Under the pieces are notes generated by a model, which searched no databases, was not told the DNA's origin, and saw only the letters and a list, made by a program, of their open reading frames with translations. This document shows, in pieces, positions 1,761-42,343 of a stretch of DNA of 64,000 nucleotides (position 1 is the stretch's first letter; the number at the start of each line of letters is the position of its first letter). This DNA comes from an uncultured Candidatus Saccharibacteria bacterium (lineage in GTDB: Bacteria > Patescibacteriota > Minisyncoccia > Phycocordibacterales > UBA9973): positions 141,212-205,211 of the forward strand of contig CAZIZK010000002.1 of NCBI GenBank assembly GCA_964544225.1, written 5' to 3'. Position numbers and translations under genes: made by a program.

Positions 1761-3440
1761 TTATTTCACACTATCAAGTTCCATCCAGAATGTAGAGCCA
1801 AGGTTTGGGCCTGGTGAGTCTACACCTACATTTCCGTTGTGAGCTTTGGCTATTTCTTTTGCGAGATACAGGCCTAGTCCTGAACCAGAAGAGTTGACCT
1901 TGCCACCTTCACCTCGAGCAAACTTTTGGAACAATGTAGCCTTTACCATTGGTGTCATACCCATGCCAGTATCTTTGATAGCAAAGCGAACTTTACCATC
2001 TACATGACTGAGTCCTACTTCAATACTACCCTCCTTTGTATACTTGATAGAATTGTCGATAAAGTTCAGTGCTACTTGGCGGAGCTTCTCCTTATCGCCG
2101 TGTACATTGTATGGGCCTGTTTTATCATCGGTATATGACAACTTTAGACCCTTCTTCTCGGCAGTTATGGACAAGTCCTTTGCCATGTTGGAAGCAAGTT
2201 CGGTAAAATCGAAATCTATCATCTCATACTTCATACCACCGGACTCGATCTTTGACACACTTAGGAAATCTTCCACCACGATGGCTAGGTTCGAGCTAGA
2301 CTCAAATATACGACTTGCCGCCTCTTTTGCTTTATCATTTATCTTGCCGAAATCTCCATCTACAAGCATTGAAGAGTAACCCTTTATTGCAGTTAGTGGA
2401 CTGCGTAGCTGGTGTGAAGCAAGTGACAGGAACTCGGTCTTTAATTTATCCAATTCTTTCAATTTATCATTTGCATTTTCAAGCTTCATGTTCGTTTCTT
2501 CAAGGCGCATTTTGGAAGCTTCTAGGTCTTTTGACAAGTTTTCAATACGAACACGCTGGTCAGACTCTTTCTTTAGATTTCGGAACAATATAATACTCAA
2601 TACTAAAGTTAATACGATAGTAATGATAGTCAATAATCGGTCGGCATCACCACTGATAAAGAATAGTTGCCCACCCACTAGTACAACAAGTCCAACAACC
2701 AGATAGTGTGTACCTAGTATGTTGAAGTGGAATATATCGAATTCAAATACGGCATAAATAATAGCAAGTAGGAATAGTGGGAGTATAAATAGACTATATA
2801 GATTGATCTCGTATATACCTGTCAGTGATGATATATACTCAGACACACCAAATACTGAAAGGAATAGTATGATACTACCTAGTACTATCAAGTCAGCCTT
2901 CTTATCTTTCTTATCCTGCTTTTTGAAAATAGATTGAACGAAATATATTACTATAGTGATACCAATACCACTCTCTATGAATAACTTGTAGTTATCAAGG
3001 AATGTATTGTTCACAGCCTCGCACACAGACTGGTCGAACCCTAATACGGACTTCTTCATAAGAGTAAATACTAAAGGTACTAGTGTAATACCCACAAAGA
3101 GCATCTTTACCCACTTGGATATATCCCTTTCTCGAACGAATACAAAGGCAAAGTACATAGCCAATACGAAGAACACTATCTCTATGTATAACAAGAATGA
3201 CCATACAGCGTAAACTAAATTGTAGTTACTTGATGTCCAAACTATATAATCACCAACAAGCCATATTGATATAAAAGATACGAATGTAAGAAATATTTTA
3301 GAAAACAGGTTGAACTTTGCCTTAAATGCTACAAATATAGCAAGAAGTAATGAGAGTACAACAGGAATAAGGTGTGAATAAGAAGCGATGACTCGTATAT
3401 CTTGTGTTAAAACATAACATGTATTGATTATTTCATTCAT
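1761..3440 (-). CDS. sensor histidine kinase (multi-TM N-terminal sensor, HisKA + HATPase_c)
   Basis: About 7 hydrophobic helices N-terminal, coiled-coil linker, H-box SHQLRSPLTAIKGY, N/G boxes (NFIDNSIKYT, DTGMGM, GSGLGLYLAKEI). Confidence 0.85.
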   Translation of the reverse strand: MNEIINTCYVLTQDIRVIASYSHLIPVVLSLLLAIFVAFKAKFNLFSKIFLTFVSFISIWLVGDYIVWTSSNYNLVYAVWSFLLYIEIVFFVLAMYFAFVFVRERDISKWVKMLFVGITLVPLVFTLMKKSVLGFDQSVCEAVNNTFLDNYKLFIESGIGITIVIYFVQSIFKKQDKKDKKADLIVLGSIILFLSVFGVSEYISSLTGIYEINLYSLFILPLFLLAIIYAVFEFDIFHFNILGTHYLVVGLVVLVGGQLFFISGDADRLLTIITIVLTLVLSIILFRNLKKESDQRVRIENLSKDLEASKMRLEETNMKLENANDKLKELDKLKTEFLSLASHQLRSPLTAIKGYSSMLVDGDFGKINDKAKEAASRIFESSSNLAIVVEDFLSVSKIESGGMKYEMIDFDFTELASNMAKDLSITAEKKGLKLSYTDDKTGPYNVHGDKEKLRQVALNFIDNSIKYTKEGSIEVGLSHVDGKVRFAIKDTGMGMTPMVKATLFQKFARGEGGKVNSSGSGLGLYLAKEIAKAHNGNVGVDSPGPNLGSTFWMELDSVK

Positions 3441-3447
3441 ATTTTTA

Positions 3448-4251
3448 TTAAATTATTTCTTTTATACCTGGTTTATAAGAAACCCAATACTCACCATCTT
3501 CAATATCCATAGGGGGTATTGGTACTATTAAAGGTTTTTCATTTGTAAGACTATACACATAATCAATTGCAGGAAGCACTATATTTTTTGAAAAAATAGC
3601 ATTTGAACCTGTAGTTAAAAAATTCTCAAATAAAATACCATTACATAGAAACATTAAAAAGAGTTTTTTATAATAATCTTCCGGTTTACCACCATTTTTA
3701 TGTATCCATTCTGATAAATCGTAAAAAGTTAGATTATTAATATGATCATTGTGAGCAAATTCAAATAATTTTCTATGTAAACTTAACAAGGATTCACCTT
3801 TTATTGTCGGAACATCGCACAATTTTTTACCATCGTGTTTACTAAAATCAACAATGGTACATTTTTGAATTTGGTATTCCCCTTTCTTGTCGACACCATT
3901 ATTTATACGAAGTTGACCTAGAGAATGCTTGAAGTCATTATTTGATGTAAATTTATCATCAAGATATTCAAAGAAAATAGGTTTTATATGATTTTCTTTG
4001 GTTATTTGTAAGAAATGTTGTGCATCCATATTCGGTGTAGCTATTTGCCTAAACTGCACACCGCATTTATCACCTGTATTTAAACATTCGGGGATATCAC
4101 CTTTTAAAAGTTCTGTGACTTTTGCAACTAGGTCTTTATTGTTGCGTCTTTCCTCCAATATTTCCAAAGCTTCTGATAGTGGAGTATATACAACACTATT
4201 AAAAAGCTTTTTGTCAGACATTATTTCATCATAATTACCTATAGAAGTCAT
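3448..4251 (-). CDS. hypothetical protein (267 aa), translationally coupled to upstream Cys-rich protein gene
   Basis: Long ORF, 3-nt gap to upstream gene and 7-nt gap to downstream kinase gene. No motif I recognise. Confidence 0.5.
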   Translation of the reverse strand: MTSIGNYDEIMSDKKLFNSVVYTPLSEALEILEERRNNKDLVAKVTELLKGDIPECLNTGDKCGVQFRQIATPNMDAQHFLQITKENHIKPIFFEYLDDKFTSNNDFKHSLGQLRINNGVDKKGEYQIQKCTIVDFSKHDGKKLCDVPTIKGESLLSLHRKLFEFAHNDHINNLTFYDLSEWIHKNGGKPEDYYKKLFLMFLCNGILFENFLTTGSNAIFSKNIVLPAIDYVYSLTNEKPLIVPIPPMDIEDGEYWVSYKPGIKEII

Positions 4252-4254
4252 ATA

Positions 4255-4656
4255 TTACTTTTTCTTATTTATTATTGTCGGTATAATTTCGGGTGGCTCT
4301 GGTACAGTACATATACCCGCGTCGATATCATCATTTGTACATTCTTGTTCTTGACACTGTATGACACCACCTTCACAAGCACTCTGACAGTCTTCGTTCG
4401 AACAGTATTTGAAATCAGAAGCTTTGATGTCGTACACTTTATAGTATGAATAATTGTTAGGTGGACACTCGGCGTCAGGCAATGTACAGTCGCGATAACG
4501 GCATGTCTGGGTAGTTGGGTCACAAGAAGTTTCAACAATAAAATTGAAGTCCTGTTTGAAATAAAAGAAGTAAATCATGCTAGTAATACAAACAACACAA
4601 CAAATCAATAATACTGACAAAAATTTACTTTTAGAATTAATTATATCTTCTGGCAT
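4255..4656 (-). CDS. small membrane-anchored cysteine-rich protein (133 aa)
   Basis: N-terminal TM (FLSVLLICCVVCITSMIYFFYF) followed by about 14 Cys in an extracytoplasmic domain. Looks like a disulfide-rich secreted domain. Confidence 0.5.
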   Translation of the reverse strand: MPEDIINSKSKFLSVLLICCVVCITSMIYFFYFKQDFNFIVETSCDPTTQTCRYRDCTLPDAECPPNNYSYYKVYDIKASDFKYCSNEDCQSACEGGVIQCQEQECTNDDIDAGICTVPEPPEIIPTIINKKK

Positions 4657-4680
4657 ATATGTATTATTTTATCATATTTA

Positions 4681-5592
4681 TTAATTAAAAAGTATCACAC
4701 TACCGCATATCATGATAAGTATAGCGATTATTTTTGGTATCAAGACACCTTTTGACATATCTTCTTTTACAATATTTGGGTAAGTGTATGTAAATATTAT
4801 AGTCATGATCAATAGTATCGCCGGCTGAAAGCTACCTACCAGGTAGACCATGGTAACTGGTGCCAGGAGCAGAGCAAAGTTAGTAAGCATGTTACCAATC
4901 ACTGTTAGGATCTCGCTTGATACGTTTAAAGAAAATATTGTCTTGCCACCGAGCTTGTTCATATGCATGAACTCCTTGCGATATTTCGGTACGAATATAT
5001 AAAGGATTACTCCTGCAATACCTAGACCCACATATTCCCAGAATGATGCTACCCAGAAGTTATCCTCCACTGTTACGTATTTAAATATTATCCCTGCCGA
5101 TGCTATAAGCAGGCAGGCTATCAACATATATAGGGCTGGCTTCCAGCGGAACTTCCTATTATTCTTGAAATCTATCGATACGATACCCACACCAAGCAAT
5201 ACAATCAGCGAGCCTATTTGCTGGTGAACTGTCAGAGTCTCACCTAGAAATATATACCCCAACAAATACCCAAATACTGGCACAGTCAGGAACCACGGTA
5301 CGAGTGTGGATATATCCTCAAGTTCGATAGTGAACAAGTACAATATGATCCATATGATAGTAATGAAGCCGGTAATGATGAGGAGGATCTTGTCTAAGCT
5401 TGATATGTCGAAAACATTTGGATTGAATATCCATATACCGAGTGCCACAAATATACCTATCAAACTCGAGAAAAGTACCAGGCCCCCCGAGCCACGCTCG
5501 CCTATTGAATACTTTGCAACTAAATATTGATCAAATATGTTTACCAATGCCCACAGGAATGGTGCACCGAGTGCTATTAAAAACCAATTCAT
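4681..5592 (-). CDS. EamA/DMT-superfamily transporter
   Basis: 303 aa, about 10 TM helices, two EamA-like halves. N-terminus MNWFLIALGAPFLWALVNIFDQYLV. Confidence 0.65.
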   Translation of the reverse strand: MNWFLIALGAPFLWALVNIFDQYLVAKYSIGERGSGGLVLFSSLIGIFVALGIWIFNPNVFDISSLDKILLIITGFITIIWIILYLFTIELEDISTLVPWFLTVPVFGYLLGYIFLGETLTVHQQIGSLIVLLGVGIVSIDFKNNRKFRWKPALYMLIACLLIASAGIIFKYVTVEDNFWVASFWEYVGLGIAGVILYIFVPKYRKEFMHMNKLGGKTIFSLNVSSEILTVIGNMLTNFALLLAPVTMVYLVGSFQPAILLIMTIIFTYTYPNIVKEDMSKGVLIPKIIAILIMICGSVILFN

Positions 5593-5686
5593 ATAAATAT
5601 TATAACATATCTATATTCATAAATTGCCAAAGGGGTAAAATTTGTGTACTATTTCCATATATTTAATTATTTAATTTTTAATCAAA

Positions 5687-6598
5687 ATGATAGATACAAT
5701 ATTGAGCGCAGGTAAAAATATAGACAAGTCTGATGTGGTGATAGTAAGTGCCGGTTATGAAAAGACAGCAAGTAGCCGTAAAGGTACAGCAAAGGGCCCA
5801 AAGGCTGTTATGAAGATGCTCGATAGCAAGCTCGAGCTCTTTGACCGTAATTTCAAGAAGGAGGCTAGCAAATTTATCGGTATTGCAGCCAAAGACCTAG
5901 GTGATATCAGTAAATTAACTCCCGAAGGTGCATTGAAGAAGATCACGGCTGAATGCGACAAGATAGTGTCCAAAGGTAAGTTCGTATTGTTGCTAGGTGG
6001 TGAGCACTCTGTATCATTAGGCCTATTCCAATCCCTTGCGAAAGTTCACAACCCAAAAGATGTCACAATATTACAAATCGATGCGCACTGTGACCTACGC
6101 GATACTGACGCCGACTACAACCCAAAGCCTACAAAGTATGCGCACTCTTGTGTACTACACCGTGCCACTGACTTACAATACCCACTAGTTCAGGTAGGTA
6201 TCCGCACATATTCAATACACGAATACAAGTATTTCAGTGATCCAAAGAATAATATTACAGTATTTGAATGGGGTAACCCAGACAGTGCCCATGATGTATG
6301 GCAAGCACCAAGTATCGACGAGATACTAGCTTCAATAAAGACAAAGTATGTATATCTAACTATCGATGTAGACGGCTTTGACCCTGCATATATGCCTGGT
6401 ACAGGTACACCTGTCCAAGGGGGCCTAGAGTGGTGGTATGGTGTAGAATTGATCAATAGATTGATAAATGAAAAGGTATTGATAGGTGCCGACATTGTGG
6501 AAGTCTCCCCTATGAAGGATTCCGTCCTTACTGAATACGGCGCAGCCCAGCTAGCGTATAATATAATCACTAATAAGTTCCGAGACAAGTTGAAATAA
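5687..6598 (+). CDS. speB: agmatinase/arginase-family ureohydrolase (likely agmatinase)
   Basis: Mn-binding signature blocks LLLGGEHSVSLG, ILQIDAHCDLRD, LTIDVDGFDPAYMPGTGTPVQGGL. Confidence 0.8.
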   Translation: MIDTILSAGKNIDKSDVVIVSAGYEKTASSRKGTAKGPKAVMKMLDSKLELFDRNFKKEASKFIGIAAKDLGDISKLTPEGALKKITAECDKIVSKGKFVLLLGGEHSVSLGLFQSLAKVHNPKDVTILQIDAHCDLRDTDADYNPKPTKYAHSCVLHRATDLQYPLVQVGIRTYSIHEYKYFSDPKNNITVFEWGNPDSAHDVWQAPSIDEILASIKTKYVYLTIDVDGFDPAYMPGTGTPVQGGLEWWYGVELINRLINEKVLIGADIVEVSPMKDSVLTEYGAAQLAYNIITNKFRDKLK

Positions 6599-6614
6599 GC
6601 ATTATTTGACAGAT

Positions 6615-6652
6615 GTGTATTTTTAGTTTATAAATAAATAAAAATACACATG
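6615..6652. terminator. hairpin (tgtgtattttta...taaaaatacaca) after the agmatinase gene
   Basis: 11-bp perfect inverted repeat with AT-rich loop. Marks the 5' border of an AT-rich cassette. Confidence 0.45.
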
Positions 6653-6653
6653 T

Positions 6654-7202
6654 ATGAAAAAACTATACTTAGCTAAAAGGATACAAAAGAACCCGGATCC
6701 CAGATTTATACTTTCAGTAAATACAAACATGAGCTTGGAAAATGTAATCGAGGCATATGTTGAAAAAATTTATGTCACAAAAAGATACATTTATAATGGC
6801 CCGTGGGTACTAAGAGCACCATTCTATGAAAATGTTTTTGCTGAAAATAATATGCCCCCAGATTTAAAACCTATTAATGTGTGGGAAATGGTCAAACAAA
6901 AAATAGATTCTAGCGATATTTTTATAGGTATAATAAGTGGAAAATCTTATGGAACTATTGCAGAGGTTGGATATGCCTGTAACTCCACTAAAATTGCAGT
7001 ATATGTACTACCTGAAATAAATTTAAGTTATGATGAATTACAAGATTTGTGGTTTGTATTTCAAATGGCATTTAATACAGAAAATTTATGGTTAGATGAG
7101 GATATAAAAAATATAGAAGAATTTAATCATCTAAATATTTTTTCTATTAATGACTATAAATCGTATGTAAGTAAAATAATACCAAATTTTATGAAAAAAT
7201 AA
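6654..7202 (+). CDS. nucleoside 2-deoxyribosyltransferase-like (NDT/Rcl/YtoQ-type Rossmann-like) protein
   Basis: Motif SDIFIGIISGKSYGTIAEVGYACNSTKIAVYVL matches the D...G..sGTa.ElGyA...kpv core of the NDT family, with a conserved Glu in AEVGYA. Very AT-rich gene. Confidence 0.5.
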   Translation: MKKLYLAKRIQKNPDPRFILSVNTNMSLENVIEAYVEKIYVTKRYIYNGPWVLRAPFYENVFAENNMPPDLKPINVWEMVKQKIDSSDIFIGIISGKSYGTIAEVGYACNSTKIAVYVLPEINLSYDELQDLWFVFQMAFNTENLWLDEDIKNIEEFNHLNIFSINDYKSYVSKIIPNFMKK

Positions 7203-7207
7203 AAATC

Positions 7208-7248
7208 AATAAAAACCTTTCTTTTTAAAAAATTGAAAGGTTTTTTTA
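7208..7248. terminator. hairpin aaaaacctttc-N13-gaaaggttttttt between NDT-like and NUDIX genes
   Basis: Perfect 8-bp stem flanked by A-run and T-run. Confidence 0.5.
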
Positions 7249-7271
7249 TTTATGATACAATTACCTTTATA

Positions 7272-7685
7272 ATGAATATACGTATAAACTCTTTAGTTTT
7301 AATTTATAATAAAGAAAAAGTTTTGCTCCAGAAAGGATATGATCATTTTAAAAATATTATTTTTTATAGACCATTAGGAGGAGGTATCGAATTCGGAGAA
7401 AAAGCTGTAGAAGCAGTAAAAAGAGAGATCATGGAAGAAATTGGAGCTACCTTAATAAAGGAAAAATTCCTTACTGTTTTTGAAAATATATTTGAATTTA
7501 ATGGAAATAAATTTCATGAAATAACATTTTTATTTACTGCAGAATTAGCAGAAGAAGAGATGAATAAAAAGAAATTCTTACAAATTTTAGACAAGAAAGG
7601 AGCACAAGCAGAGTGGGTTCTACTATCAGATATAAAAAATGGAGTAGTAAAAATTTTACCAGAAAATTGTATCAATTTTATGTAA
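7272..7685 (+). CDS. NUDIX hydrolase
   Basis: Nudix box GGGIEFGEKAVEAVKREIMEEIGA (GX5EX7REUXEEXGU). The start at 7272 (MNIRINS) is preferred because the 7233 ATG lies inside the upstream hairpin. Confidence 0.8.
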   Translation: MNIRINSLVLIYNKEKVLLQKGYDHFKNIIFYRPLGGGIEFGEKAVEAVKREIMEEIGATLIKEKFLTVFENIFEFNGNKFHEITFLFTAELAEEEMNKKKFLQILDKKGAQAEWVLLSDIKNGVVKILPENCINFM

Positions 7686-7716
7686 AAATACTTAAATTTC
7701 ATTCAGAGTTGAAATT

Positions 7717-7748
7717 AAAAAACACTAGGTCTTGCCTAGTGTTTTTTA
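7717..7748. terminator. bidirectional terminator hairpin cactagg-tcttg-cctagtg with A/T runs
   Basis: Perfect 7-bp stem, A5 upstream and T6 downstream. Lies between the convergent NUDIX and DHS-like genes. Confidence 0.65.
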
Positions 7749-7761
7749 ATTGGTTAGAATT

Positions 7762-8781
7762 TTAGCCTAAATACTGTTGTATTAGTTTGTTAGCCTCGTC
7801 AGGATTTGCCTTCATTTCCAATAGTGCTGTGAGCATTAGTGGGGCTACTATTGTAGCGTCAGATTCCACCACGAACATTGGAGTCTCCTCGGTCAATTTA
7901 TCCCAAGTGATCTTCTCGTTTGGAGTTGCACCGGAATATGAACCATATGATGTTGTAGAGTCAGATATCTGGCAGAAGTATGCCCAAGGCTTTGCCTGTT
8001 GTTCCATATCGTATTTCAGTGATGGAACTACACATATCGGGAAGTCTCCAGCGATACCTCCACCGATCTGGAAGAATCCGATACCCTTGCCCTCGGACAA
8101 TGTCTGATACTGGTCATATAATGCACCCATGTACTCTACACCGCTCTTTGCGATAGTTGCACTACAGTCCCCCATCTTTACGTGTGAAGCAAAGATATTT
8201 CCAAAAGTAGAGTCCTCGTATCCTGGCACCACTATTGGCAAGTTTGCCTGTGCAGCTGCAAGTAGCCAGCATTCATCGGCCTTACCTTCATGATCCTCCT
8301 TGTCTATCTTCTGTATTAATTCGTAGAAATATTCATGCCAGAAACGTCTGTCGCCTTTTGCATCTGCGTCCTTCCACATTGGGACAATAAACTTCTCCAC
8401 CTTGCGGAAAGCCTCATCCTCGGGGATACTAGTGTCTGTAACACGGCGCATACGATCCTCCAATATCTTTGTATCATCTTCTTTTGTAAAGTAACGATAA
8501 TCTGGAAAGTCCTTGTAACTATCATGGGCAACAAGGCGGAAAAGTGATTCCTCCAGGTTCGCACCTGTTACAGACATACCGTGGATAAGGCCTGCGCGGA
8601 TTGCCGGTGCAAGAGTGATACCCATCTGTGCAGAAGACATAGCCCCAGCGACAGCCCAGAACATACGGCCCCCACCTTCTACGTGGCGCCAATACGCTAT
8701 CAATGCATCACGAGTAGCACGAGAGTTAAAGTTCTTATAATTCTTTAAAACAAATTCTAATGTTGGAAGATTTGGATTCAT
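7762..8781 (-). CDS. deoxyhypusine synthase-like protein (bacterial DHS/homospermidine-synthase-like family)
   Basis: MFWAVAGAMSSAQMGITLAPAIRAGLIHGMSVTGANLEESLF aligns with the eukaryotic DHS core [42 protein letters not shown]. Size 339 aa. Confidence 0.7.
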   Translation of the reverse strand: MNPNLPTLEFVLKNYKNFNSRATRDALIAYWRHVEGGGRMFWAVAGAMSSAQMGITLAPAIRAGLIHGMSVTGANLEESLFRLVAHDSYKDFPDYRYFTKEDDTKILEDRMRRVTDTSIPEDEAFRKVEKFIVPMWKDADAKGDRRFWHEYFYELIQKIDKEDHEGKADECWLLAAAQANLPIVVPGYEDSTFGNIFASHVKMGDCSATIAKSGVEYMGALYDQYQTLSEGKGIGFFQIGGGIAGDFPICVVPSLKYDMEQQAKPWAYFCQISDSTTSYGSYSGATPNEKITWDKLTEETPMFVVESDATIVAPLMLTALLEMKANPDEANKLIQQYLG

Positions 8782-8832
8782 AATTTTTAAACTATTAATT
8801 TTATAAATATAAAAACATTATAACATTTTTTA

Positions 8833-8953
8833 AAAATCAAGATATTGCTGTAGATACAAGGCGACGATGAGCATTGCGACCAAAATGTAGACATCTACAT
8901 TGCGGAAGCAAGAGGAGTCGTCAACGCAGTAGGTATAGTAATATCTTGATTTT
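8833..8953 (-). ncRNA. structured intergenic element between speA and the DHS-like gene (candidate regulatory RNA or attenuator)
   Basis: 14-bp perfect outer inverted repeat (aaaatcaagatatt / aatatcttgatttt) enclosing about 90 nt that contain the palindrome atgtagacatctacat and repeated cattgcg motifs. The 176-nt intergenic gap is unusually long for this genome. Confidence 0.35.
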
Positions 8954-8957
8954 TATT

Positions 8958-10340
8958 TTACCAGCCAAAATTCTTGCCCACTTCGTCGGCTGTCTCACGT
9001 TTACGAGCAATAACAATGTGGCCGTTCTCCACTATCAACTTCAATGGTGAAGACAACATGCAGTGGTGTGCTGCTAGTGGGTCTTGGTATGCACCTGTGT
9101 CGAACACGGCTATGTACATCGGGTCGCCACCTTCACTGGAATCATAATCTGGTAATGTTACAGCGCCATCTACGCCTGTATATATGTCGTCACTATCACA
9201 AGATGAACCAGCGAGCCATACATCATTTAACTCGCCATCACGTTTGTTGTTTACTGGTGCCAATGCCCACTTCTGGCCAATAGCCCAAGTGTCTAGCAAG
9301 TCGTTCATAAAGCTTCCGTCTATTACGTACCACTTTTTTGCAGGAGCCTTTTTATTATTTATCGGCTTTGTATCGATAACTTTAAATACAGTTATCTGGG
9401 CAGGGGCTACAATATAGCGACCCCATTCGCAAATCAGGTTTGGGTGCGCAACTCCACGCTTGTCGGCCTCGTCCCTCATTAATTTCAATATCTTATCCAT
9501 TAATTTATCCACTGGATAGCTCTTGTTCCTTGTATACGGTATTGGCATACCACCACCAATGTCGAGTGTGTCGAGTGATGGATTAATCTCCTTTAGTTTA
9601 AAGAATACATCCAGAGCGTATTTAATAGGGCCTAGTACGTCAGACAATTTCTCTATCTGTGAACCTATATGATAATGTAATATTTTTAGATTTTTAAATT
9701 TACCCATTTCCAATATCTCCTTTGCGCCGAACCCAAAACGGTCGATGGGCTTGTTCCAGTACGAATCAGCCTTTACTGGCATGTCTAGGCGTATACCCAC
9801 ATCGTATTTAGAATGCTGTAGGAACTTCAATTCATTTGGCCCTTCGATAAGTGGAAATATCTTCACACCTTTGTGTTGTAGGTCGTCGATGAGGTTTATG
9901 TATTTGTCAGTTTTAGGGCCCGAGCAAAGTATGCGAATATCTGGGTTGAACTTCTCTTGTTCCAACATCTTCTTTATTAGGTACAGATCATTGAAAGATG
10001 AAGTTTCGAGGTGGGCACCCTCACCCACGATACTCATAACAATTTCCTTATTCTGGTTCACCTTCATCGGGTAATGGTAGAAGAACTTGCCTTTGTAGCC
10101 CACCTTCTTTGAAAGTGATGCTGTTAGGTCTAGGAAGTCCTCCAGCCTCTCCTCCACCACGAATGGCAAAAGAATCTCCAGTGATGTACCGAACTTCTCT
10201 GCAAGATATCGAACGTTATAAATATTGTGCCCTTCTTTGATTATCAAGTCACCCTCCTTGCTGTAATCAAAATATTGAGTATTGAACTCGGTAGCCCCAA
10301 GCTTCCAAAGTTTCTTAGAAGCTACTGATTTTTTGGTCAT
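8958..10340 (-). CDS. speA: biosynthetic arginine decarboxylase, SpeA-type (PLP fold-III decarboxylase), short form
   Basis: YPMKVNQ (SpeA-type PIKVNQ PLP-lysine motif rather than the ODC/LysA YAVKxN), YHIGSQ, LDIGGGMPIPY, EWGRYIVAPA, SSCDSDD substrate-loop Cys. 460 aa. Confidence 0.75.
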   Translation of the reverse strand: MTKKSVASKKLWKLGATEFNTQYFDYSKEGDLIIKEGHNIYNVRYLAEKFGTSLEILLPFVVEERLEDFLDLTASLSKKVGYKGKFFYHYPMKVNQNKEIVMSIVGEGAHLETSSFNDLYLIKKMLEQEKFNPDIRILCSGPKTDKYINLIDDLQHKGVKIFPLIEGPNELKFLQHSKYDVGIRLDMPVKADSYWNKPIDRFGFGAKEILEMGKFKNLKILHYHIGSQIEKLSDVLGPIKYALDVFFKLKEINPSLDTLDIGGGMPIPYTRNKSYPVDKLMDKILKLMRDEADKRGVAHPNLICEWGRYIVAPAQITVFKVIDTKPINNKKAPAKKWYVIDGSFMNDLLDTWAIGQKWALAPVNNKRDGELNDVWLAGSSCDSDDIYTGVDGAVTLPDYDSSEGGDPMYIAVFDTGAYQDPLAAHHCMLSSPLKLIVENGHIVIARKRETADEVGKNFGW

Positions 10341-10418
10341 TTCATATAAGCAAGCCTACTGCTCGCACTAAACGAATAATAAAGTAATAATAGCAGAAAT
10401 GAAGGATATGTAAATAGT

Positions 10419-11252
10419 TTAGATATTCTTACCAACAAGGAATCCCTCTGAACCCTTTTTGTTGCAATTATGAGCAAAAACAATCAATCCATCCTTTGAA
10501 GCTTTCACAACCTTGCATCCATCAAGAGCTACAATTTGACCTTTTTTTATTTTTTCGAAATCTTTAAATTTCTTTTTTAAAACAAATGAATCTGTCTTTG
10601 TGTGGTAAATAGAGGTCATTTTAATATTCTCTCTTGCAACTTTTATACTTTTTTTAGATTCTATATGACCTTGAGCTTGCAAGAAAGACTGTATTGCATT
10701 AAATGCATTTTTTATAGACTTTTTATCATTATGCTGACCACACTCGACACAAATACCTACCTTACCTATATCATTCATATAACCCTCGGTTCCACCGGGT
10801 TCAATAGTATTAAAATTGTATAACACTCTTTTGAAATCTTTTGGAAATGAATTGATTATTTTATTTGCATTTTTCTCACAAATTATAAAGGGTGCATTTT
10901 TGTGGGTTGTGGAATGTATATCCAACAATGCATCGGCTTTGTTTAACAATTTCTTTATGAACAATGACCTCTTGTACTCATATGATGATTTTATGTTCTT
11001 AGTATATTTATTATCTCTACTGAATAATCTATTTAAGTTAACTTCAGTAAATCTCTTTTTTTGTTCTATTGCTTTTGGATTACCAAAAATAAATACAACC
11101 TTACCTTTTTGTATTTCTAAGTTTGGTAAAATTAATTTAAAAGCTTCAACTCCACAGCCTTCGTCACCATGAGTGCCTGCCATAATAACACTTACTTTAC
11201 CTGGTTTTATTCCTTTTTTCTCTATTACTTCTTCCATGCATATAAAATACAT
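10419..11252 (-). CDS. succinylglutamate desuccinylase/aspartoacylase (AstE/AspA) family Zn-dependent deacylase
   Basis: N-terminal MAGTHGDEGCG matches the family GTHGNE zinc-binding motif. Size 277 aa. Confidence 0.6.
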   Translation of the reverse strand: MYFICMEEVIEKKGIKPGKVSVIMAGTHGDEGCGVEAFKLILPNLEIQKGKVVFIFGNPKAIEQKKRFTEVNLNRLFSRDNKYTKNIKSSYEYKRSLFIKKLLNKADALLDIHSTTHKNAPFIICEKNANKIINSFPKDFKRVLYNFNTIEPGGTEGYMNDIGKVGICVECGQHNDKKSIKNAFNAIQSFLQAQGHIESKKSIKVARENIKMTSIYHTKTDSFVLKKKFKDFEKIKKGQIVALDGCKVVKASKDGLIVFAHNCNKKGSEGFLVGKNI

Positions 11253-11332
11253 TAAATAAATTTTATATGCAAATAAAAAAGGCCCGTGCTGTATATACAG
11301 TCGGTGCCCTTTTTCAAAATATTGTTTGTTTA

Positions 11333-12565
11333 CTAATCAGCTTTGATTAGCTCACGAGCTTCATCCAACATATTGAATGCATGCTCGTGTGAAAGAAAAG
11401 AGATAGCGGTCAGGTCCACAGAACCATGCCTTATGATTCCTGGATTTGTAACGAGTACAAAACCACTCTTTTTTGGCACGAGGCGTTTACCCAACAACAC
11501 CTGAAGTTCTGCAAAAGATGATACCTTTGCGTGGCTGGTGTGCTGATGCCGAACAAAGTGAGGCTTGCCCTCCATTTCTTTATTCTTCAGATACCGGTTT
11601 ACAGCATCATAGATGAACAGGATCGCACCTTTGCGTGGATTCAGGTCACTCCAATAGAAGTGTCCATCATTGCAAACAAGGATATCACAACACATAAAGC
11701 CAAGGCCTCCGCGTTTTGCAATACACTCGGTCAGCATTTTGTACTCTACAAAAATACTGTCCAACAAATCGTTTGGGATTTTTGTGGGAAAAATTGTTCC
11801 CACATAGCTAACATTCTCAGCCAGCTGCTCAAAACAATTCAGGAACTTTACGTTTCCATTAAAATCAATTTCCCAATGCATGGAGATTTCCATTGCCACG
11901 GGGATAAGCTTTTCAATAATGTACTCATCTTTGAGTGCATCATATTCAGCTTTTGATTTTATCGGGACTATTGTTCCGAGGCCTGCACCACCGGTACCAT
12001 ACACATGCTTTGCGATGTACCCATTTTGGCTTTCGCCAAGCATTAATACAACATCTTCCCACTCTACTCCACCGTGTGTTTTATCAACATACGGTAATGC
12101 AGAAATTCCGGCTTGCTTGCAAAGCTCCTTGAAATTTGATTTCCTTTGGAACTCATTTGCAAACTCGAAATTGATATAGGAAGGCATCTTTAACTCTTCA
12201 GCCAAGCGCTGTTCCTTTACCGACGGAGTAAAAAACTCCAGTCGTACATCATACCCATTTACCGCTTTCAGCAGACTTGATTTAACCTCATTTTTGTTCA
12301 AGATTAATTCAGAAAGGATCTGATTTTGCTCAAAAGGCCCAGCGGTTAGTAAAGTTGGGATACTGAAACCAAGATGCTTCCAGTATTTAACATAATCAGA
12401 ATCAATAGGGTTCGTTGTTATTACAACATCACCTGATTTACCCTGACTAAGGGCTGCTCTTTGATCGAAATCTTGTTCAGATTCCAACCCTAAGAAATGT
12501 GGATTACTTTGGCTATCAATGATAACTCTTCGTACCCTTGCTGCTTCAACCGATTCTCTTTTCAT
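11333..12565 (-). CDS. ATP-grasp family ligase (amide/peptide ligase-like)
   Basis: C-terminal ATP-grasp hallmark CDILVCNDGHFYWSDLNPRKGA (D.l...dG..y.lE/DlNprpG) and a Gly-rich loop GTGGAGLG. 410 aa, N-terminal pre-ATP-grasp-like region. Confidence 0.6.
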   Translation of the reverse strand: MKRESVEAARVRRVIIDSQSNPHFLGLESEQDFDQRAALSQGKSGDVVITTNPIDSDYVKYWKHLGFSIPTLLTAGPFEQNQILSELILNKNEVKSSLLKAVNGYDVRLEFFTPSVKEQRLAEELKMPSYINFEFANEFQRKSNFKELCKQAGISALPYVDKTHGGVEWEDVVLMLGESQNGYIAKHVYGTGGAGLGTIVPIKSKAEYDALKDEYIIEKLIPVAMEISMHWEIDFNGNVKFLNCFEQLAENVSYVGTIFPTKIPNDLLDSIFVEYKMLTECIAKRGGLGFMCCDILVCNDGHFYWSDLNPRKGAILFIYDAVNRYLKNKEMEGKPHFVRHQHTSHAKVSSFAELQVLLGKRLVPKKSGFVLVTNPGIIRHGSVDLTAISFLSHEHAFNMLDEARELIKAD

Positions 12566-17035: not shown

Positions 17036-17058
17036 AAACACCCATTGGGTGTTTTTAT
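17033..17058. terminator. bidirectional terminator acaccca-t-tgggtgt with flanking A/T runs
   Basis: Perfect 7-bp stem between convergent genes. Confidence 0.6.
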
Positions 17059-18044
17059 TTATGTTTATGATTACGCCGGAAAGCACGATCTAAGCTTTTT
17101 ATATCTTCAAATTTTTTCTCTAGATATGGTTCGATGATCTTGTGTGCATCATACTCTATAGAACCGGGTTTGTTATATTCTTTTAATTGTGATTTTATAA
17201 AACTGTGCTCTTTAGATGTTACAACATCACCAGCAATTCTTAAACCATCTTGAATCATTTGCAAAGTAGAGCCAACAGGATGTTCATCAAATTGTTTAGC
17301 ATGAGCCCATTCAGCAACTAAATCTCTTAATTGGAAATGTCCACCCAAGCTTTTATAATCTTGTGCATTTATAAAAACAGTATGTGTAAAAGAATTATAA
17401 TGAGCTACTTTATTATCATTGGAAATCAAAAAATCTCGGTTTTTACCGAAAGTCCAATCTATTTTAGGAGACCCACATTCTTTTTCCACCTCCCACAACT
17501 TTTTATAAATAGTGTCATTGTATTCATACTTTTTAGGATAGTATCTACTTAATGATCTTTCAAAATATTTCAAAGTTTCCTGTTCATTTTCCAATTCTTG
17601 TTTTTTATCATTTATCTTATCTAATTTTGATAAAAATTTAACTAATTCCTGTTTATTAAAATTTATAAAATTTTCTGGAAGTGTTAATTTACTATCACCT
17701 TGCGAAGACCAACCAATAATATATTCTTTGAAAAAATGCATTTGTTCTTCTTCACTAAGAGAATCCAAACCTCCTAAATAATTCAATATATGGGTAGTTT
17801 GCTTGTCTGAGTGTGTATATACCTCTTTACCATCAACATTTGAAGCTTCTATTGTATTATTATGGGTAGCTTGATAATCAGCTATCAAACCAATAGTTAT
17901 GATAGTTGCCACTTGTCGTGTCCTCTTTAAGAATTTTAAAGCTTTTTCTTTAACCTGCTCTAAAGTAGACTTTTTTTCAGGAGTCTTTGGTTCTTCAGTG
18001 GTATTTACCGGTTCTGGATTTGTTTGTTTATTTATTCCCTCCAT
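17055..18044 (-). CDS. hypothetical protein (329 aa), Lys/Glu-rich, inserted between grpE and the dnaK regulator
   Basis: ORF only. N-terminal region with a probable TM (VATIITIGLIA). No motif recognised. Confidence 0.45.
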   Translation of the reverse strand: MEGINKQTNPEPVNTTEEPKTPEKKSTLEQVKEKALKFLKRTRQVATIITIGLIADYQATHNNTIEASNVDGKEVYTHSDKQTTHILNYLGGLDSLSEEEQMHFFKEYIIGWSSQGDSKLTLPENFINFNKQELVKFLSKLDKINDKKQELENEQETLKYFERSLSRYYPKKYEYNDTIYKKLWEVEKECGSPKIDWTFGKNRDFLISNDNKVAHYNSFTHTVFINAQDYKSLGGHFQLRDLVAEWAHAKQFDEHPVGSTLQMIQDGLRIAGDVVTSKEHSFIKSQLKEYNKPGSIEYDAHKIIEPYLEKKFEDIKSLDRAFRRNHKHK

Positions 18045-40718: not shown

Positions 40719-41630
40719 TTATTCCAAAGCCCAACCGATAAAAGTTTTACCGGAAAGTTTGTACGAGGACCATATCATGGCAATAAATGTAAGAACAATG
40801 TAAACAATGGATATCATCGCCATACTAGAAGCTATAAATAGCATAGCAAAAACAATGACAACTTCTATAAAATAAAACCAGTCACTGGACCAAAAATTTA
40901 TCACTCTTTTCTTGGGCCAATCTGCAGACAAAGATTTTAACACAAGTATGGCTACTAAATACACACACATGATTATACTCCACCAAATATTCCAACCTAT
41001 TTCATCTGCATATATTGCGCCAAAAATAAATAATACAAAAGATATTACACTCATAAACGTTGAAAAAAAACTATCTCTAGAAACATCATTAGATTCAAGA
41101 TATTTATTAGTATCTGCTTTTTTTCTGTAAAAATGACGCGTACTATAAATTATAGAAATAAAGTAAAAGATAAATCCTAAAAAAATAAAATTTAAATCAT
41201 AATCAATTTCTTTATTTATTTTAGAATAGAAAATACCCTTTTCTTTATCAACAGCTGGCGTCTTTGTAAACATTTCTGTTCTTGAAAATAGTAAGCTGTT
41301 TTTATTTGAAGGTTTTTCAAACTTTCCTACACTGTCTCCAAAAAGTACCAGTGGGGGTCTTACGGAAACTTTCCAATCAAAGATCTGACCCTGGTAATAC
41401 AGATAGGTTAAATCTTCGTTATTGAATTGGGCTAATACTTTAGCCAATTGTGGGTCAGAAATTTTCATTTCCGAAATAGTATGACTGTAGACAGTTTTTA
41501 TTATGTTTACAATCTTGACCTTCATTCCACTCACACTGATCTGTTTAATATTTTCATTTTTTACAGAATCCTGTCCCTGCAGAGTTGCTAATCCTAACAA
41601 AAGGAATAACAAAATGATTAGTTTTCTCAT
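40719..41630 (-). CDS. hypothetical polytopic membrane protein with N-terminal signal peptide (303 aa from ATG at 41630)
   Basis: Signal peptide MRKLIILLFLLLGLATLQG, followed by about 5 TM helices in the C-terminal half. The ORF-track extension to 41672 is a TTG/ATG artefact reading through the promoter-leader repeat. Confidence 0.5.
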   Translation of the reverse strand: MRKLIILLFLLLGLATLQGQDSVKNENIKQISVSGMKVKIVNIIKTVYSHTISEMKISDPQLAKVLAQFNNEDLTYLYYQGQIFDWKVSVRPPLVLFGDSVGKFEKPSNKNSLLFSRTEMFTKTPAVDKEKGIFYSKINKEIDYDLNFIFLGFIFYFISIIYSTRHFYRKKADTNKYLESNDVSRDSFFSTFMSVISFVLFIFGAIYADEIGWNIWWSIIMCVYLVAILVLKSLSADWPKKRVINFWSSDWFYFIEVVIVFAMLFIASSMAMISIVYIVLTFIAMIWSSYKLSGKTFIGWALE

Positions 41631-41648
41631 AGTCGTATTTATTTGTTT

Positions 41649-41682
41649 TTCTTTACAATACAACTTCCACACAAAATGTCAA
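41649..41682 (-). promoter_or_regulatory. promoter-leader module copy 1: TTGACA-16-TATTGT plus a 22-nt leader identical to copy 2
   Basis: Minus strand: TTGACAttttgtgtggaagttgTATTGTaaagaaaaacaaataaatacga(ct)ATG. A 35-bp block (41631-41665) is identical to 42344-42378. Confidence 0.5.
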
Positions 41683-41696
41683 CAAGATAAAACATA

Positions 41697-41775
41697 ACTG
41701 CGTTAGGCCTTGCCTAACGCAGTACAAACACCAAAATAAAAACCCATCATTTCAAGACGGGTTTTTGTGCAATCA
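41697..41775 (-). terminator. two tandem hairpins terminating the 41798..42343 gene
   Basis: ctgcgttagg-cctt-gcctaacgcag (perfect 10-bp stem) and aaaacccatc-atttcaa-gacgggttttt. Confidence 0.55.
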
Positions 41776-41797
41776 CGATAATGTGATTGTAGTATTT

Positions 41798-42343
41798 TTA
41801 CCTAAATGGTTTTGAATCAGACCAGAACGGTATTTTTCGGTTTGCAGACAAAGCTGTACCATAAGACGGGAGGCTACTCCACATAAATGCTATGTCAAAA
41901 CTTTTTGAAAATATCTGCCAAAATCTTATAACATTATTAAGTGTTAATTCCTCTTCCTCGTAAGGTATTTTTACTTTTTTAAGAAAAAGCTTTAGGCTTT
42001 CTTTGCTCTGCTCCAAATCCTCGTATTTATTTTGACTCGAGAACAAAACAAATTCATGATTTATATCTTCAAATATATATAGAGATTTTTCGCTTGAAAC
42101 AGATTTTCCTTTTTCTTTTTCCCAAATCCACCCTTCAAAACTTTTAAAGAATAAAAGTATGTGCTCTAACTCATACCTCAGATTATTACTATTTGGGATA
42201 AGCACAATTTTCCTGTAGTAAGGAGGACGGAATCGACTTACTGTTTGAGGGAGTAGATTCTTTGATATTTCAATCACAAAATTATATCTTTTTACTTGCC
42301 CCTCGGGTAGTAAAATCAAAAAAGGTAATTTATTATTTTCCAT
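41798..42343 (-). CDS. hypothetical protein (181 aa from ATG at 42343)
   Basis: ORF only. Shares an identical promoter-leader with the downstream membrane-protein gene. Confidence 0.45.
   Translation of the reverse strand: MENNKLPFLILLPEGQVKRYNFVIEISKNLLPQTVSRFRPPYYRKIVLIPNSNNLRYELEHILLFFKSFEGWIWEKEKGKSVSSEKSLYIFEDINHEFVLFSSQNKYEDLEQSKESLKLFLKKVKIPYEEEELTLNNVIRFWQIFSKSFDIAFMWSSLPSYGTALSANRKIPFWSDSKPFR

Follow-up and report, generated by a model that had tools for sequence, protein, structure and literature searches.

In a 64,000-nucleotide stretch of DNA from an uncultured Candidatus Saccharibacteria bacterium (contig CAZIZK010000002.1, positions 141,212 to 205,211; hereafter the window), an AT-rich cassette located between an agmatinase gene and a convergent gene of the deoxyhypusine synthase (DHS) family encodes two small proteins, a 182-residue protein that profile comparisons assign to a divergent branch of the nucleoside 2'-deoxyribosyltransferase (NDT) superfamily and a MutT-like NUDIX hydrolase. 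The two genes recur side by side in other genomes, the cassette is strain-variable, and the pair rather probably constitutes an accessory module for the salvage or sanitation of deoxynucleotides. The genes and boundaries on which the analysis is centered are the following (window coordinates).

5687-6598, + strand: agmatinase gene, left flank and conserved anchor (TIGR01230 at 201 bits, cut-off 174)
6599-7789, no strand: strain-variable AT-rich cassette, the segment without homology in the closest relative (L031/L032)
6654-7202, + strand: 182-residue open reading frame (ORF), divergent NDT-superfamily member (from the ORF listing, profiles, and model)
7272-7685, + strand: 137-residue MutT-like NUDIX hydrolase (PF00293)
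7762-8781, - strand: DHS-family gene (homospermidine-type), right flank and anchor of the slot (PF01916)

Base Composition of the Cassette

An earlier reading of this DNA, made from the sequence only, had described an AT-rich segment between the agmatinase and DHS-like genes, and both the windowed GC content and the values of the individual ORFs agree with that description. The GC content across 6600-7700 is 0.21-0.30 compared with 0.41-0.46 in both flanks, and the 182-residue ORF and the NUDIX gene have the lowest GC among the 62 long ORFs of the window (0.277 and 0.261; window ORF mean 0.398, standard deviation 0.052), with GC at third codon positions (GC3) of 0.208 and 0.167 (window mean 0.368, standard deviation 0.083). 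The bounds proposed in the sequence-only reading, 6600-7760, agree almost perfectly with those of the segment without homology in the closest relative. Further AT-rich ORFs are located at 3448-4251, 10419-11252, 17055-18044, and 40719-42343, so that the compositional anomaly of the cassette is real and not unique, and such ORFs seem to mark a flexible gene pool of the source genome. Fast evolution was considered as the cause of the low GC and rejected, given that the fast-evolving neighbors EamA, HK, and Agm show normal GC3.

Family and Fold of the 182-Residue Protein

A word-indexed search retrieved 17 homologs of the 182-residue protein with 34-60% identity, and the family profile (A1) produced 64 matches among 1.84 billion representatives, 18 of them with E < 1e-30. 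The family is very rare, comprising about 18-26 clusters in that collection. The AlphaFold2 model obtained with the family alignment (pLDDT 94.5) exhibits the three-layer alpha/beta architecture (flavodoxin/Rossmann-like) common to NDTs, and its top structural neighbors are true NDTs. Foldseek returned nothing significant for this model against the PDB, which makes the relationship a remote one, and nothing significant against the viral BFVD library.

At the sequence level, the Pfam search produced no PF05014, PF15891, or PF11071 match for the window protein itself, and the family profile alone found no match among PDB sequences even at E = 10. The link to the PDB was provided by a bridging family formed by the weaker matches of the A1 profile (alignment A2, sequences P0042-P0080), in which 34 of the 35 members match PF05014. 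Aligned by hhalign, A1 and A2 gave a probability of 99.7% (E = 1.3e-25, 144 columns), and the profile merged from them (A3) had 34 of its 35 PDB matches in the NDT superfamily, the best being the nucleoside monophosphate (NMP) glycosidases BcmB and MilB; no TIR domain was among these matches. The PDB matches collected with A2 and A3 comprise BcmB, MilB, TbNDT, BlsM, NDTs, DNPH1, and YtoQ. Among the 44 family and bridge members, PF05014 was matched by 32 versus four for DUF4062 (PF13271), and the 182-residue protein gave a weak PHROG match to "nucleoside 2-deoxyribosyltransferase" (E = 1.2e-3). A TIR-like NADase of the DUF4062 type would be expected to score above the PF13271 cut-off and to have TIR as its closest fold, and neither was observed. 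Superfamily membership is hence drawn from the transitive profiles together with the sub-threshold PF05014 matches in other members, and these comparisons sustain the assignment to an NDT/Rcl/YtoQ-type protein made in the sequence-only reading, in the sense of a predicted divergent branch of the superfamily and not of a bona fide NDT.

The sister family A2 (positive for PF05014/PF15891), whose members are the nearest relatives by sequence, has traits of its own, namely a conserved Cys/His cluster (CDHGCxHG...HG) and a Cys at the general-acid position. Some of its members are fused to HNH, REase_MTES_1575, DUF559, or RING domains, which hints at a DNA-directed or conflict-related role of this sister family.

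Predicted Active Site

The motif that had first drawn attention to the protein, SGKSYGTIAEVGYACNSTKIAV, occupies residues 95-116. Within it, Glu104 (codon 6963-6965) closes the segment YGTIAE, which aligns via A2 and A3 with the catalytic Glu of PGTHIEIGWA in BcmB and MilB and of CGTAFEVGCA in TbNDT, and neither Glu104 nor Gly100 varies among 44 sequences. The catalytic Glu position is thus conserved, as had been proposed, and Glu104 is the predicted nucleophile. The residue located six positions before it, Ser98, is Ser in 14 of the 17 family members and Ala in the other three, and is never Asp; in the same 17 sequences Tyr5, which sits on strand 1, and Arg9 are invariant, and Lys97 is nearly so. 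In DNPH1, the nucleophile is E104, the acid is D80, and the phosphate is bound by S98, six residues before the nucleophile, and in MilB the phosphate is bound by S97 plus R23 (PMC10603095, PMC3834327). It has also been reported that replacing Phe by Tyr on strand 1 moves the preference of MilB to deoxyribose (PMC10603095). Seen against these enzymes, the invariant Tyr5 suggests a deoxyribose substrate, and the conserved basic residues R9 and K97 suggest a phosphorylated ligand. The occurrence of Ser or Ala but never Asp before the Glu, the retention of Tyr5 and Arg9, and a Val80 at the position of the general acid (weighed below) describe a divergent member that leans toward a nucleotide glycosidase and in which acid catalysis would be altered.

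The NUDIX Hydrolase and Its Linkage to the 182-Residue Protein

The second protein is a canonical NUDIX hydrolase, as the sequence-only reading had it: PF00293 matches with E = 5e-14 (52.8 bits against a cut-off of 21.1), and the Nudix box GGIEFGEKAVEAVKREIMEEIGA (residues 37-59, nucleotides 7380-7448) follows the consensus GX5EX7REUXEEXGU. Its orthologs, 135-137 residues long, keep the box and form about 14 clusters, about as low a number as for the 182-residue protein, and they display the additional motifs F-x-R-x-x-GGGIEF and ENIFE...HEI-x-F. The nearest solved structures are AtNUDX1 (E = 8e-9), 2pqv, 4kyx, and 3gwy, with CTP pyrophosphohydrolase among the relatives. All 12 NCBIfam equivalog matches lie far below their cut-offs, the best being MutT (TIGR00586, 31.2 versus 97.9 bits), and the model of NudC, an NAD+ diphosphatase, scores 24.9 bits against a cut-off of 158. 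The NCBI record gives a 150-residue protein starting from a TTG at 7233, which falls inside the terminator described below as hairpin 2; this location and the 135-137-residue length of the orthologs favor the ATG at 7272 and render the TTG start unlikely.

The gene-neighborhood analysis revealed a NUDIX gene directly 3' of the 182-residue homolog in the window and in the loci labeled L001, L005, L009/L017, L011/L025, L014, L016, L018, L019, L020/L042, L029, and L043, that is, in about 12 distinct contexts whose outer flanking genes vary. In three lineages (L005, L011/L025, and L014), the two genes are separated by a gene in opposite orientation for a deoxynucleoside kinase (dNK, PF01712). This recurrent adjacency, with the kinase in between in three lineages, bears out the functional duo that the sequence-only reading had envisaged. 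A HIT protein occurs near the pair in L020/L042, and a second NUDIX gene and a HAD hydrolase occur near it in L014. The metagenome scan added three further loci and no more, and the viral contig scan detected no relatives, on which grounds a phage origin was rejected. The PADLOC search gave no match for the 182-residue protein, and for the NUDIX protein it matched the candidate family PDC-S07 only (E = 1.6e-6). In the literature searched, no paper was found on the pairing of NDT, NUDIX, and dNK, on NDT in Patescibacteria, or on YtoQ function that describes the pair.

Several neighborhoods deserve mention as observations in their own right. The most distant homologs (34-36% identity), in Alphaproteobacteria metagenome-assembled genomes (MAGs; L021-L024, 6625-8528), lie directly 3' of a queuine tRNA-ribosyltransferase gene (TGT, E = 8.5e-123) on the same strand, an adjacency that may reflect a link to the salvage of modified bases such as queuine or preQ. 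In a Chryseolinea MAG (JBGSJE010000015.1; L018, 7362-8991), a Cap15-type effector of CBASS with two transmembrane segments (2TM; PADLOC E = 3.5e-36; Pfam Cap15_CD_rec 57 bits) is encoded directly 5' of the 182-residue homolog and the NUDIX gene, on the same strand. The vicinity of this effector revealed no CD-NTase, no hairpin lies between the two following genes, and the three genes may form an operon. A third associated gene may be represented by the AT-rich 267-residue ORF at 3448-4251 (- strand; GC 0.294, GC3 0.187), for which no Pfam, PADLOC, or PHROG match was found; its homolog lies directly 3' of the pair in L001 (50% identity), and another, also AT-rich, is present in L031.

A Cargo Slot between Two Conserved Genes

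Relatedness among the genomes was taken as the nucleotide identity of the flanks, for which the identity of the DHS protein is no substitute because this protein keeps an identity above 80% from one phylum to another; the DHS-family protein of the window shows 82-88% identity to proteins of Myxococcota, "Deltaproteobacteria," and Nomurabacteria MAGs. In the closest relative, L031, the blastn match covers 3042-6598 at 94% nucleotide identity and resumes at 7790-10414 at 91.5%, so that the homology ends exactly after the agmatinase stop codon and restarts 28 nt inside the 3' end of the DHS gene. The slot of L031 (5993-7463) holds genes unrelated to the cassette of the window, encoding a 165-residue multi-pass membrane protein (weak Yip1 match) and a 257-residue lipoprotein-like protein, and these genes are likewise AT-rich (GC3 about 0.23). 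Other relatives have an empty slot of 52 nt (L033/L034; L033, 4280-4331) or 40 nt (L035, 6021-6060), each with a single bidirectional terminator. The closest relatives thus lack the cassette and carry other cargo or an empty slot, which defines the cassette as strain-variable.

The same slot is occupied by the same pair in more distant relatives, with an identical order in L029, the same order plus a dNK in L005, and the pair inverted in place in L016. In these three AT-rich genomes the composition of the cassette is host-like; the pair also tends to be more AT-rich than its neighbors in several other genomes, and the identity ranks of cassette and flanks agree. The presence of one pair in one slot of distant AT-rich relatives makes an exchange by recombination through the conserved flanks likely, and the breaks of homology at the ends of the flanking genes fit homologous recombination and not an integrative element. 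The simplest reading is that the slot is a hotspot in which cargo would be exchanged by homologous recombination through its conserved flanks, instead of the site of a one-off insertion. The horizontal acquisition suggested in the sequence-only reading is accordingly upheld by the sharp breaks and the variable slot, with the refinement that the flanking hairpins are terminators or structures overlapping a promoter and not the marks of an element. Conservation at the locus with host-like composition, which that reading had set against acquisition, is found in the distant AT-rich relatives and not in the closest ones.

Transfer between lineages is indicated separately by L015 (7998-8552), in an Absconditicoccaceae MAG (JBAQPP010000007.1) that uses code 25 (TGA = Gly). 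The neighbors of the 182-residue homolog contain 8-43 in-frame TGA codons each, amounting to 78% of their Gly codons, and the homolog has none among its five Gly codons (P about 5e-4), from which a recent transfer from a standard-code organism is probable. The sequence P0013 carries Trp where Gly is conserved and has the look of a native TGA-Gly copy that was wrongly translated under code 4.

The source genome of the window has a peculiarity of its own in this codon. Throughout positions 1-64000 (60 genes, 18,578 codons), TGA is never used in frame nor as a stop, the stops being TAA (53) and TAG (9). Out-of-frame TGA is common (389 + 669), in 12 of 59 genes TGA is the first in-frame stop met on the upstream side, and none of the four tRNAs of the window has a UCA anticodon. 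This suggests that TGA is unassigned or avoided in the source genome, or that it represents an early or late stage of stop-codon reassignment.

Around the slot, the DHS-like gene is followed by an arginine-decarboxylase-like (ADC) gene, and the three genes, agmatinase included, cluster at 5687-10340. The cluster resembles the homospermidine or bis-guanidino-aza-nonane route, a resemblance for which all NCBIfam equivalog scores are below cut-off. A second variable region (10419-12565) is located beside the ADC gene, in which an AstE/AspA-family gene (10419-11252, GC 0.30) and the next gene, of 410 residues, have no counterpart in L031, which has other genes there.

Hairpins and Promoter-Like Sites

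The noncoding parts of the cassette and its margins contain three stem-loops and two promoter-like sites.

6606-6634, + strand: promoter-like TTGACA-N17-TATAAA 5' of the 182-residue gene, overlapping hairpin 1 (read from the sequence)
6613-6651, + strand: hairpin 1, AT-rich stem-loop between the agmatinase stop and the start of the 182-residue gene (minimum free energy -13.5 kcal/mol, z = -3.16)
7211-7251, + strand: hairpin 2, intrinsic-terminator-like, between the two genes (z = -2.47)
7233-7261, + strand: promoter-like TTGAAA-17-TACAAT with a TG extension, 11 nt 5' of the NUDIX ATG (10/12 match)
7713-7751, no strand: hairpin 3, perfect 17-bp palindrome (z = -4.8 on the + strand, -5.2 on the - strand)

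Hairpin 1 was not equaled by any of 200 shuffled sequences and has no U-tract after its stem. The arms of hairpin 2, AAAAACCTTTC and GAAAGGTTTTT (7211-7245), are followed by a T-run, four of 200 shuffles fold as well, and a terminator-like hairpin with a U-run is present at the same position in L029, L016, L001, and L019. Hairpin 3, with an A-run on one side and a T-run on the other, serves the convergent NUDIX and DHS-like genes as a bidirectional terminator, and the empty slots of L033 and L035 hold a single hairpin built in the same way. The Rfam scan of the window matched only the four tRNAs and no RNA family for the hairpins. Of the promoter-like sites, TTGACA-N17-TATAAA is absent from the list of the promoter scanner, whose rule demands that the second hexamer end in T, and it would act as a putative promoter of the 182-residue gene. 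The site before the NUDIX gene is a joint-best match in the scanned region, and since the number of promoter-like sites in this region equals the shuffle expectation, it constitutes weak evidence.

The three strong hairpins pointed out in the sequence-only reading are therefore real by their shuffle z-scores, and as ends of a cassette or element they do not hold up, being ordinary terminators or structures that overlap a promoter. A hairpin-bounded mobile element was rejected in view of the lack of terminal repeats and of the terminator role of the hairpins, which have their likes in relatives and empty slots; the repeat search found no flanking direct or inverted repeats beyond chance around the cassette, and the ORF listing and family scans found no recombinase gene inside it. 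We also considered that the cassette had split an ancestral terminator hairpin, and the sequences do not fit this. With promoter-like and terminator-like elements belonging to each gene, the cassette appears as two small transcription units and not as an element with ends.

Proposed Function and Alternative Explanations

On the salvage or sanitation reading that we favor, the 182-residue enzyme would cleave an N-glycosidic bond by way of an intermediate in which the (deoxy)ribosyl group is covalently linked to Glu104. Its substrate is most likely a 2'-deoxynucleoside 5'-monophosphate (dNMP), a prediction that follows from Ser98 being the residue of DNPH1 and MilB and not the Asp of nucleoside-specific NDTs, from the conserved Arg9 and Lys97, and from the invariant Tyr5; a base exchange on nucleosides is less likely. 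The NUDIX hydrolase would turn (deoxy)nucleoside tri- or diphosphates into monophosphates, and the dNK, where present, would make dNMPs from deoxynucleosides, so that the three enzymes would all converge on the dNMP pool. Such a convergence fits the salvage, catabolism, or sanitation of scavenged or noncanonical deoxynucleotides in reduced genomes of the Patescibacteria type. The direction of flux and the substrates are those that we infer, and the module would move between genomes by recombination through its flanks.

Several observations weigh against this reading. No Pfam or NCBIfam model passes its threshold on the 182-residue protein of the window, whose sole direct Pfam match is DUF4062 (20.4 bits against a cut-off of 24.7, E = 6e-4, residues 74-105). 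The position of the general-acid Asp (DNPH1 D80, LlNDT D72, and the aligned Asp of BcmB and MilB) is held by an invariant Val80, as judged from alignment and spacing only, and ordinary bases would consequently need a relocated acid, perhaps the invariant Asp131, or else the substrate would have a good leaving group. The window has no dNK, the homologs in L015, L021-24, and L040 have no NUDIX neighbor, and in L027 (5105-6411) and L028 (109-1531) a NUDIX gene occupies the agmatinase-DHS slot without the 182-residue gene. Finally, the hairpin between the two genes in five genomes makes a strict co-transcription improbable.

The same superfamily comprises the TIR and DUF4062 NADases employed in immunity, and the pair could accordingly serve in antiphage defense or nucleotide signaling, with the NDT/TIR-like enzyme making or destroying a nucleotide-derived signal, or depleting or destroying phage-specific (modified) nucleotides, the NUDIX protein processing the product, and a membrane effector carrying out the response in some genomes. 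This is unlikely on the present evidence. A strain-variable and AT-rich content in a hotspot is typical of defense cargo, the spread across phyla is patchy and bears signs of horizontal transfer, the Cap15-type effector precedes the pair in L018, and the NUDIX protein and the dNK match the PADLOC families PDC-S07 (with E = 4.7e-11 for the copy of L018) and PDC-M51B, respectively. However, the association with Cap15 is restricted to one locus of about 15, the PDC matches correspond to generic folds, the 182-residue protein itself remains without a PADLOC match, and both proteins are minimal enzymes devoid of sensor or oligomerization domains. Most of the loci, moreover, are placed beside housekeeping genes (NusA, Tig, RNase R, S16, and DnaK/J), and the recurrent dNK partner points to metabolism. 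It is quite unlikely that the pair is a minimal nucleotide-based conflict module spreading among Patescibacteria via hotspots with conserved flanks, which would destroy modified phage-specific deoxynucleotides of the hm-dUMP or hm-dCMP type after conversion of the triphosphates by the NUDIX protein, or would make or degrade a signal for Cap15-like effectors with the NDT-like enzyme replacing a CD-NTase or TIR. Improbable, too, is an NAD-related pair, in which the 182-residue protein would be a DUF4062/TIR-like NAD+ or NMN glycohydrolase and the NUDIX protein an ADP-ribose or NAD+ pyrophosphatase. The neighboring DHS-like enzyme is NAD-dependent, JGI labels some of the NUDIX orthologs "ADP-ribose pyrophosphatase YjhB," the absence of the acid Asp would be tolerable with nicotinamide as a leaving group, and the only direct Pfam match of the window protein belongs to DUF4062, which has been demonstrated to comprise TIR-like NADases (bioRxiv 10.64898/2026.05.01.722283). 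Against it stand the predominance of PF05014 over DUF4062 among the members and the merged-profile matches to NDT, MilB, or DNPH1 in place of TIR, as well as Tyr5 with its suggested deoxyribose; the NUDIX protein lacks the N-terminal domain of ADP-ribose pyrophosphatases and falls far short of the NudC cut-off, and a dNK partner has no role in NAD metabolism.

A classical NDT salvage as in Lactobacillus, where the 182-residue protein would swap bases, the dNK would phosphorylate, and the NUDIX protein would house-clean, would account for the true NDTs among the top structural neighbors, for the weak PHROG match, and for the kinase between the genes in three lineages. It is nonetheless unlikely, since Ser or Ala stands six residues ahead of the Glu where nucleoside-specific NDTs have Asp, NMP glycosidases give the best sequence matches, R9 and K97 suggest a phosphorylated ligand, and the general-acid Asp is missing. 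A role as a functional part of the polyamine pathway (ADC, DHS-like enzyme, and agmatinase) would agree with the pair, or the NUDIX gene alone, occupying the agmatinase-DHS slot of the window, L005, L016, L029, and L027/28, and with the NUDIX gene of L027 starting 5 nt after the agmatinase stop, a spacing at which the two are probably co-transcribed. This role is very improbable: in close relatives, the same polyamine genes enclose an empty slot or a different cargo, at least seven contexts of the pair are without polyamine genes, the pair is inverted within the slot in L016, and no polyamine step is known to need NDT-like or NUDIX enzymes.

Significance

The fold, the Glu chemistry, and the pairing of an NDT-like enzyme with a NUDIX hydrolase are of a known kind, while the 182-residue family, its altered active site, its dedicated NUDIX protein, and its behavior as swappable cargo were not found in the literature searched. 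Together, the results define a very rare branch of the NDT/DNPH1/MilB enzymes that is still unannotated, in which the predicted nucleophile and a putative phosphate-type Ser are kept and the general acid is apparently lost, and which is nearly always paired with a NUDIX clade of its own. Should deoxynucleotides be what the pair acts on, it would have a bearing on the ways in which ultra-small, host-dependent Patescibacteria salvage or clean scavenged nucleotides. The locus also offers a concrete case of accessory gene flux, with different AT-rich cargos swapped between two extremely conserved genes and with one transfer probably having reached a genome with a reassigned stop codon. As both proteins are small, soluble-looking enzymes, the prediction is open to biochemistry.

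Comparison with Known Systems

Among characterized enzymes, the closest likeness is to DNPH1/Rcl and to MilB, BcmB, and BlsM, with which the 182-residue family shares the G-T-x-x-E motif with its Glu at the aligned position. By its position, the Ser six residues before the Glu would correspond to the phosphate-binding Ser of DNPH1 (Ser98) and MilB (Ser97), and strand 1 carries an aromatic Tyr with a basic residue after it. The merged profile, too, has its best matches in DNPH1, MilB, BcmB, and BlsM (E = 2e-4 to 1e-3). The family differs from DNPH1 and MilB in an identity below 20%, with no significant match for the window protein alone, in an insertion of about 60 residues that separates strand 1 from the core (residues 9-72, with an invariant N48-G49-x-W51), and in an extra C-terminal helical region with an invariant D131-L-W-F. 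With the NDTs (PF05014; LlNDT 1f8x, TbNDT 2a0k, 7o62) it has in common the Glu position, and more than half of the family gives sub-threshold PF05014 matches; the pairing with a deoxynucleoside kinase recalls the Lactobacillus type of salvage. Unlike the NDTs, it has Ser or Ala six residues before the Glu instead of the Asp typical of the nucleoside-specific ones, it has no general-acid Asp, and it is about 30-40 residues longer owing to its large insertion.

The sister family A2 shares (V)Y-x-A-(G/K)-(K/R)-I-x-K-N after strand 1, Y-x-G-P, S-D, YGTIAE-x-GYA, and DLWF with the 182-residue family, in which, by contrast, neither the Cys/His cluster nor the Cys of the acid position has been retained and whose proteins always stand alone at about 182 residues. 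The DUF4062/TIR-like NADases (Swarozyc, Evangelion, and TEP1) belong to the same superfamily and place a Glu at a topologically equivalent site, but the match to them is below cut-off, PF05014 is preferred 8 to 1 family-wide, and the sensor and oligomerization domains are absent from the 182-residue protein. As for the partner, it resembles the MutT-type NUDIX enzymes (AtNUDX1, MutT, and CTP pyrophosphohydrolase) in its canonical box and single domain of about 137 residues, and it departs from them in forming a small ortholog group of its own with extra motifs and a score far below the MutT equivalog cut-off.

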